A stretch of DNA of 64,000 nucleotides from Octopus vulgaris. Lineage: Eukaryota. Below are positions 28,655 through 29,536 of this stretch, piece after piece (positions within the stretch are counted from its first letter, which is position 1; each line of letters begins with the position of its first letter). The translations under genes and the position numbers were made by a program. The notes below the pieces were generated by a model, which did no database searches, was not told where the DNA came from, and saw only the letters and a program-made list of their open reading frames with translations. Where the stretch lies: NCBI GenBank assembly GCA_951406725.2, contig OX597816.1:74214001-74278000 (forward strand), read 5' to 3'.

Positions 28655-29536
28655 TAATAGAAATATTAAAATAACTAAGTCTCTCTAAAAGAGAACAGCG
28701 GCAGCGTTCCCGGAAAATAATAGTTATCGCCATACTAATATGGCATTCTTATAAAAATAAGAAAAAAGCTGTCCGCTTATTAGCTCCATGAGGCCATCGC
28801 CTTAAGTTAGCTATTTGATACACAAACTGTATCCATATAACCTTCGAACAAGGGAGGTCAGTCGCTCCACACTACTTGACCGGCAGCTACAGACGCGTTT
28901 CAGGGTATTGCCCCTTTTCAATGCAGCGTAGCCAGCCAGTAGGTGTCGCTTCCGACAATCTCTGTTCGATGGTTTTATTTACCTAGTTTCGGTGGAATAC
29001 ATCCACTTGTTTTCAATAATAGAAATATTAAAATAACTAAGTCTCTATAGGTTATATGGATACAGTTTGTGTATCAAATAGCTAACTTAAGGCGATGGCC
29101 TCATGGAGCTAATAAGCGGACAGCTTTTTTCTTATTTTTATAAGAATGCCATATTAGTATGGCGATAACTATTATTTTCCGGGAACGCTGCCGCTGTTCT
29201 CTTTTAGAGAGACTTAGTTATTTTAATATTTCTATTATTGAAAACAAGTGGATGTATTCCACCGAAACTAGGTAAATAAAACCATCGAACAGAGATTGTC
29301 GGAAGCGACACCTACTGGCTGGCTACGCTGCATTGAAAAGGGGCAATACCCTGAAACGCGTCTGTAGCTGCCGGTCAAGTAGTGTGGAGCGACTGACCTC
29401 CCTTGTTCGAAGGTTATATGGATACAGTTTGTGTATCAAATAGCTAACTTAAGGCGATGGCCTCATGGAGCTAATAAGCGGACAGCTTTTTTCTTATTTT
29501 TATAAGAATGCCATATTAGTATGGCGATAACTATTA
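28655..29536. mobile_element. Retrozyme-like array: 362-bp unit, ~1.1 copies (-) joined to ~1.3 copies (+), within (TA)n
   Basis: Period of 362 seen on both arms (28655/29017 and 29051/29413); arms are near-identical reverse complements in different circular registers. Confidence 0.9.
29327..29368 (+). ncRNA. Type I hammerhead with U3-A8 core (mirror copy 28886-28927 on minus strand)
   Basis: GCUGCA-UUGAAAA-GGGG-CAAUA-CCCU-GAAA-CGCG-UC-UGUAGC. Confidence 0.8.

Follow-up and report, generated by a model that had tools for sequence, protein, structure and literature searches.

A young hammerhead-bearing repeat of Octopus vulgaris forms head-to-head multimers with two paired end registers and is probably Penelope dependent

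A 64,000-nt stretch of the Octopus vulgaris genome (contig OX597816.1, positions 74,214,001 to 74,278,000; here called the window) carries two inverted, multimeric arms of a 362-nt noncoding unit with a hammerhead motif. The family to which they belong is probably a nonautonomous, Penelope-dependent repeat of the non-LTR retrozyme type, whose copies would arise by priming from both strands of the target and joining of the two cDNA ends. The kind of element is known; what is new is that start sites pair obligately, that the multimers are inverted, and that a LINE is dedicated to the repeat. In the best reading, the insertions record a Penelope-type enzyme copying RNA from two fixed starts at once. 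How Penelope elements make tandem and inverted copies is described as unresolved in the accessible parts of PMC8557442 and PMC11167929, and circle-templated retrozyme transposition stands in those of PMC7229834 and PMC4209133 as a proposal without direct proof. The octopus family offers hundreds of young, ORF-free events in which ends can be counted and variants can be tracked, and its unit defines a small RNA substrate on which a circular template could be tested against a linear one.

Architecture of the window locus

The unit (U; window positions 29049 to 29410, plus strand; 362 nt, 41% GC) serves as the numbering reference. Arm 1 (28654 to 29049, minus strand) is 396 nt, or 1.09 units, long and runs from U157 round to U190, while arm 2 (29049 to 29537, plus strand), whose initial 362 nt define the unit, is 489 nt, or 1.35 units, long and runs from U1 round to U127. 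The arms lie head to head, with their 5' ends central and their 3' ends facing outward to (TA)n target tracts placed by a repeat scan at 28396 to 28656 and 29535 to 29723. Arm 2 has no mismatch to U and arm 1 has one, located at the head-to-head junction (29047 to 29049), which can be read as one mismatch or two untemplated bases. An earlier note on this DNA had described two nearly identical, hammerhead-bearing arms of more than one unit each within (TA)n, and these measurements agree with it. The outer end of arm 1 lies in what we call the long start register (U190) and that of arm 2 in the short one (U127), leaving a 63-nt tail (U128 to U190; 28654 to 28716, minus strand) that is terminal on arm 1 only. 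The cyclized unit has stop codons in six of six frames and no ORF.

Two further sites of the unit recur below: a 17-nt LINE target, U253 to U269 (29301 to 29317, plus strand), empty at this locus, and a family-wide hot spot of 5' ends, U345 to U6 (29393 to 29416, plus strand), to which the start of arm 2 at U1 is equivalent. Elsewhere in the window, a second, almost perfect inverted repeat centered on (AT)n (29809 to 30050) adjoins the studied arms, and more hammerhead-like motifs, possibly the ends of other Penelope-type repeats, were seen by eye at 25125 to 25150, 25390 to 25420, and 27845 to 27870. Frames at 17555 to 19536 (plus), 20165 to 20527 (plus), and 51384 to 51764 (minus) resemble what we take to be non-LTR reverse transcriptases (RTs) and a mariner-type transposase fragment.

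A large, young family with two paired end registers

The 34-nt hammerhead core occurs in 856 exact copies genome-wide versus none for the reversed control, indicating that the motif is not due to chance; the inferred youth of the insertion is supported, and the family is large. We analyzed 92 loci: 39 were ranked by identity (40 of 1,180 candidates scored), a subset biased to young copies, and 53 came, in listing order, from the 100 core matches at the head of the list, which lie on two chromosomes. End counts exclude arms below 88% identity, and variant counts exclude those below 93%. No LTR-like flanks were seen in the 92 loci.

The 3' ends of 164 arms fall into two registers about 63 nt apart, 75 at U181 to U192 and 76 at U120 to U132, with 13 elsewhere; neither register corresponds to the predicted ribozyme cut, and none of the ends lies at U314. 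A (TA) sequence directly follows 143 of the 164 arms. Sixty-six loci are head-to-head pairs, comprising 57 with one long and one short end, one with two short ends, and eight with one off-register end, and the remaining 26 of 92 have a single arm. Where both ends could be classed, the long-plus-short rule therefore holds in 57 of 58 pairs (P = 2e-16), the identity-ranked subset contributing 27 of 28 and the listing-order subset 30 of 30, and the window locus is typical in this respect. Circular permutation, as claimed earlier, is thus correct insofar as the arms start in different registers, but the outer ends are not arbitrary, since 151 of the 164 arms use one of two fixed positions. Simple pairing with (TA)n was rejected as the cause of the ends: the unit has nine TA-like sites, of which two are used.

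Copied length ranges from 0.1 to more than 6 units per arm; 106 of 164 arms are at least one unit long, and both arms exceed one unit in 21 of the 57 long-plus-short pairs. Arm lengths within pairs are uncorrelated (Spearman -0.15), and the short-register arm is the longer one in 35 of 57. Fixed but different RNA sites together with independent arm lengths fit two separate priming events. At the center, 52 of the 66 junctions show an overlap of 1 to 6 nt.

The 5' ends cluster as well, at U345 to U6 (38 of 148 versus 9.8 expected) and at U311 to U331, just 3' of the predicted cut (18 of 148 versus 8.3 expected, P ~0.003), in windows picked after inspection of the data; none of the 148 lies at U296 to U310. 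Five of the 26 single-arm loci stop at U352 to U359, suggesting that the U345-to-U6 cluster is not solely an effect of joining. The clusters look like a transcription start (U345 to U6) and ribozyme cutting (U311 to U331), with RT stalling at a long hairpin as an alternative; U345 to U6 is accordingly a candidate transcription start or RT stop.

A sister repeat family, ~81 to 90% identical (L164:1-292; L195), shares the end points U190 and U~130 and likewise forms head-to-head copies, and a conserved 32-nt motif common to both families has 2,500 genomic matches. One array of ~7 units with its own haplotype (L108:2437-5001, L143-L144) abuts an older copy at the latter's U126 end. At L195 and L196, whole insertions and their flanks are repeated at spacings of 2,442 and 1,123 nt, reflecting local duplication or assembly error; these spaced copies had been considered as ORF-flanking units and were rejected as such. 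Words of the unit were found in sequencing runs under seven organism labels (shares 0.83 to 1.0), none of the runs listed being an RNA data set, and runs X3 and X16 carry the majority base, C, at U304.

A minimal hammerhead of the U3-A8 type

At the window locus, each arm carries one hammerhead. Core inspection and folding place a minimal type I motif in arm 2 at 29327 to 29368 (plus strand), with a predicted cut after 29362 (U314), and the inverted repeat and folding place its mirror in arm 1 at 28886 to 28927 (minus strand), with a predicted cut after 28892. The motif has a 6-bp stem I, a 4-bp stem II, and a palindromic hexamer as stem III, and its core carries U3 and A8 instead of C3 and G8. 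An Rfam scan of the window returned nothing at the gathering threshold and no hammerhead even at E <= 10, so the assignment draws on core inspection, folding, and the published U3-A8 variant; an Rfam match to MIR2630 reflects merely the palindrome and was discarded. Folding z-scores are -2.2 for the 44-nt core and -4.6 for a 101-nt context, and cofolding of two cores through the palindrome gives -33.7 kcal/mol for the dimer versus -13.6 kcal/mol per monomer. U3-A8 covariation has been reported for Penelope hammerheads, whose activity is described as weak and dimer dependent (PMC4209133). In the sister family, stem II and the hexamer are altered, yet pairing and palindromy are kept in the four stretches compared.

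With one hammerhead per arm, the window locus cannot release a cut-to-cut monomer; 53 of the 92 loci have at least two consecutive hammerheads, the arrangement that a preprint calls active, and could do so. The predicted cut site is crossed 220 times in the arrays, with no indel at U310 to U319.

Link to Penelope elements

The family carries the hallmark of Penelope-mobilized copies, namely, two end registers and, where copies are inverted, a tail confined to one of the arms. Published Penelope traits include copies in tandem and inverted arrangement, a 30- to 40-bp tail at one end, and a (TA)n bias (PMC8557442, PMC3846280). A purified Penelope protein, a predicted dimer, nicks and extends both target strands, with starts at two RNA-internal sites between which the tail lies, and hammerhead cleavage is dispensable for insertion in vitro (PMC11167929). 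The starts are equal between strands in that system, unlike the genomic rule of one start site of each kind per pair; the octopus family thereby yields a strict rule of one start site per target strand that the in vitro study did not see (PMC11167929).

The octopus genome itself carries a young Penelope family of 781 aa with RT and GIY-YIG domains, apparently Neptune-like as judged from its CxxxxCxxC linker, a motif named in PMC8557442. Its copies carry a hammerhead of the U3-A8 type, lie in (TA)n, and terminate at two points ~40 nt apart. Of its 723 listed ends, the first 100 include six inverted pairs, all of which combine a short end with a continuing one, as does the pair at L197. A copy of it is present in the window, where its GIY-YIG end lies at 63747 to 64000 (minus strand) and continues into L199, with the ORF split over two frames.

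The partner search scored 150 of 6,136 GIY-YIG candidates. No homology between the unit and Penelope ends was detected by blastn in 30 GIY-YIG loci and three Penelope stretches, and the letters common to the unit and the sampled ends are the hammerhead core only. Since the tails also differ in length (~63 nt in the unit versus ~40 nt), the 781-aa family remains a candidate partner only. No Penelope ORF is joined in register to the unit at the inner ends of the 164 arms in 92 loci, where the sole shared neighbor among the ends inspected is a LINE; an autonomous Penelope-like element was rejected because the unit lacks an RT-plus-GIY-YIG ORF and none is joined to it. The relationship to Penelope that the earlier note suspected is supported, and attachment to a Penelope ORF, which would have spoken against its reading, was not found.

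Variants point to mixed templates

Of 165 cases in which a variant shared among loci occurs at a locus, 128 are fixed there, versus 3% after shuffling (maximum, 6%), and the other 37 are mixed; the two arms of a locus agree on shared variants 70 times and disagree 6 times. Among 127 private variants at multicopy sites, 106 are in a single copy, 9 are partial, and 12 are fixed, some of the latter spanning both inverted arms. G223T, for example, is found genome-wide in L068 only, where all four units have it (three exactly and the fourth with a neighboring change), and G341T is in four of four copies over both arms of L131, with two other genomic matches on other haplotypes. Fifteen haplotypes fixed across whole arrays occur among 49 well-covered loci, which calls for a unit-length bottleneck. 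This bottleneck may well have been a covalent circle and may just as well not have been. Homogeneous multimers with no seams would equally result if the RT jumped in register on a linear RNA with terminal redundancy.

Other variants occupy one unit in each of both arms. A66G at L033 is confined to the outermost unit of each arm and absent from five other units, a register that hairpin pairing would not favor. G326C at L040 is in a single unit of both arms, its register being ambiguous; no source array was found for it, and a third genomic copy is on another haplotype. A158G at L101 is a weak case of the same kind, and T130C at L138 was rejected, as one copy lies inside a 3-nt mismatch cluster. 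The L033 and L040 variants, together with the 5'-end clusters, suggest linear multimers in some events. A center-symmetric variant at L052 fits fold-back copying or conversion. A 362-nt go-back joint was present in contigs of four of four independent runs, in one of them as a single closed contig; contigs cannot separate a circle from tandem DNA or show its level, and so the joint was not used as evidence for a circle.

Proposed mechanism and alternatives

Structure, copy number, target, the two registers and their pairing, junctions, and haplotype patterns are read directly from the genome, and from them we infer transcription, cleavage, the enzyme, two-strand priming, and end joining. Arrays would be transcribed into multimeric RNA; by analogy with relatives, part of the unit borders would be cleaved by hammerheads, which probably act as dimers, and a fraction of the monomers may circularize. 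A Penelope RT-GIY-YIG protein acting in trans would nick both strands of (TA)n, the target being observed and the enzyme presumed. The two target ends would then prime reverse transcription within the RNA at U~190 and U~127, one site each, for which the end pattern comes from our counts and the chemistry from published in vitro work. Both cDNAs would be copied from a single RNA or from RNAs with a common source, with ribozyme sites traversed uncut or religated, for 0.1 to more than 6 units, and their 3' ends would be joined, mostly over the 1- to 6-nt overlaps observed at the junctions, to give the head-to-head palindrome. Templates would probably be mixed, with linear multimers in some events; in addition, a unit-length bottleneck would recur, formed by a monomer circle or by template jumps in register on a terminally redundant RNA, and return arrays to a single haplotype.

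An unlikely alternative is that two-site priming uses linear multimers only and that unequal exchange or conversion homogenizes the arrays once they are inserted, without any unit-length step. The 5' ends do cluster as linear RNA ends would, the L033 and L040 variants are of the expected kind, and the hammerhead can be dispensed with in vitro (PMC11167929). However, the preponderance of single-copy private variants (106 of 127) indicates that homogenization after insertion is slow, 12 are nevertheless fixed, some across both inverted arms, and truncating templates would shorten arrays each round, yet the L108 array has ~7 units.

We consider it quite improbable that a single RT travels repeatedly round a 362-nt RNA circle and then changes strand, the second arm being copied from the first cDNA or from RNA of opposite polarity. 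Such rolling would explain the seamless multimers and those private variants that fill entire arrays; the repeated occurrence of hairpin or palindromic junctions at U353/362 and U358/358, like the L052 variant, is in line with a switch, and self-priming has been proposed for Penelope palindromes (PMC3846280). A fold-back copy cannot outgrow its template, however, yet the short-register arm is often the longer one and lengths are uncorrelated; both outer ends lie at fixed RNA sites; and the one-unit variant in the outer register of both arms of L033 is impossible from a unit circle. The strand switch envisaged in the earlier note is therefore not upheld, as the arms begin at two different fixed RNA positions and have independent lengths.

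L1-type twin priming is a known mode of LINE insertion, and a young, intact LINE is physically linked to the unit, but it is very improbable that this LINE supplies the RT, given that 19 of 19 of its 3' ends lie at an internal 17-nt site and not at (TA)n, that the repeat terminates at internal positions of its RNA and has a Penelope-type tail, and that the arms overlap in sequence. An assembly artefact from fold-back chimeric reads or a DNA-level palindromic satellite is scarcely credible: scattered 1-nt homopolymer gaps suggest residual sequencing error and some loci (L195, L196) are locally duplicated, but the arms are asymmetric, the two end registers are fixed, flanks differ in dozens of loci, and the go-back joint recurs in independent runs. 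Penelope-dependent priming from both target strands is the reading that we retain.

Comparison with known retrozymes and Penelope elements

Non-LTR retrozymes with proven circles are known from mussel, coral, and axolotl, and circle-templated tandem cDNA has already been proposed for such elements (PMC7229834, PMC4209133). A 2026 preprint traces their origin to Penelope pLTRs and detected cleavage in one of nine tested (bioRxiv 10.64898/2026.07.22.740005). They are noncoding tandem units of ~150 to 1,000 nt (350 to 390 bp in mussel) with a GC content below 50%, a type I hammerhead per unit, no LTRs, and a proposed Penelope dependence, and the octopus unit, with 362 nt, 41% GC, one type I hammerhead, no coding capacity, and no LTRs, resembles them in these traits, as the retrozyme-like character assigned to it at the outset had implied. 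Unlike theirs, its arrays are mostly short, head to head, in (TA)n, and with two fixed ends; the main text of PMC7229834 never uses the word inverted, and the accessible part of the preprint gives no end registers. Cleavage and circles are proven for some metazoan families; for the octopus unit, cleavage is predicted and a circle is possible. No cephalopod retrozyme study came up in our literature search, though Repbase may hold the unit.

With Neptune-like Penelope elements the family shares partial tandems, an inverted 5'-truncated copy, and a tail on one end (PMC8557442, PMC3846280), as well as microsatellite targets, a U3-A8 minimal hammerhead, and two internal RT starts (PMC11167929, PMC4209133). 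It differs from them in having no ORF, a tail of ~63 nt instead of 30 to 40, two arms that often exceed one unit (21 of 57), and no sequence match to the sampled pLTRs. Plant LTR retrozymes (PMC4918200, as summarized elsewhere) are likewise nonautonomous and hammerhead bearing, but they have LTRs, type III hammerheads, and 4-bp target site duplications; none of these was seen in octopus, where target site duplications are not resolvable inside (TA)n. Membership in that group was rejected on the type I topology and the tandem units.

A Tx1-like LINE specific to the repeat

The LINE is 5.37 kb long, with an ORF1 of 512 aa containing a CCHC motif and an ORF2 of 1,140 aa with an APE-RT-zf-RVT layout, from which we assign it as Tx1-like. 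Its copies, at L139-L145 and L176-L194 (for example, G000:C2:73044185-73069020 and G000:C1:162621450-162630420), are ~99.5% identical, flanked by a 17-nt duplication of U253 to U269, and in tandem at some loci. All 19 exact matches to the LINE 3' end join this site, 16 continuing into the repeat and 3 into the next tandem LINE. The haplotypes of the host units differ, indicating that the insertions were independent.

Tx1-clade LINEs that target other transposons are known, such as Tx1L in Tx1D and Tx1-Mar in Mariner (PMC4494074), and the octopus LINE resembles them in its APE-RT-zinc finger ORF2, its CCHC ORF1, and a fixed target within a mobile element. It differs from those two in that the target is a hammerhead repeat. 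The literature listings, as far as accessible, contain no LINE with such a target, although Repbase may hold this one; as far as searched, the site-specific LINE thus represents a new kind of target for such elements. We tentatively entertain, as a possible but doubtful extension, a three-tier system of an RNA circle, a Penelope dimer whose subunits start 63 nt apart and are each primed by one (TA)n strand, and the LINE as parasite. If so, two active sites would chase each other round one viroid-sized circle, a 362-nt substrate would serve a telomerase-related RT, the LINE would parasitize the repeat just upstream of its ribozyme, and circle-templated reverse transcription from two ends would have left a natural record in the family. 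The sequence that L061, L108, L129, and L130 have in common upstream of U~250, once considered a Penelope body, proved to belong to the LINE.
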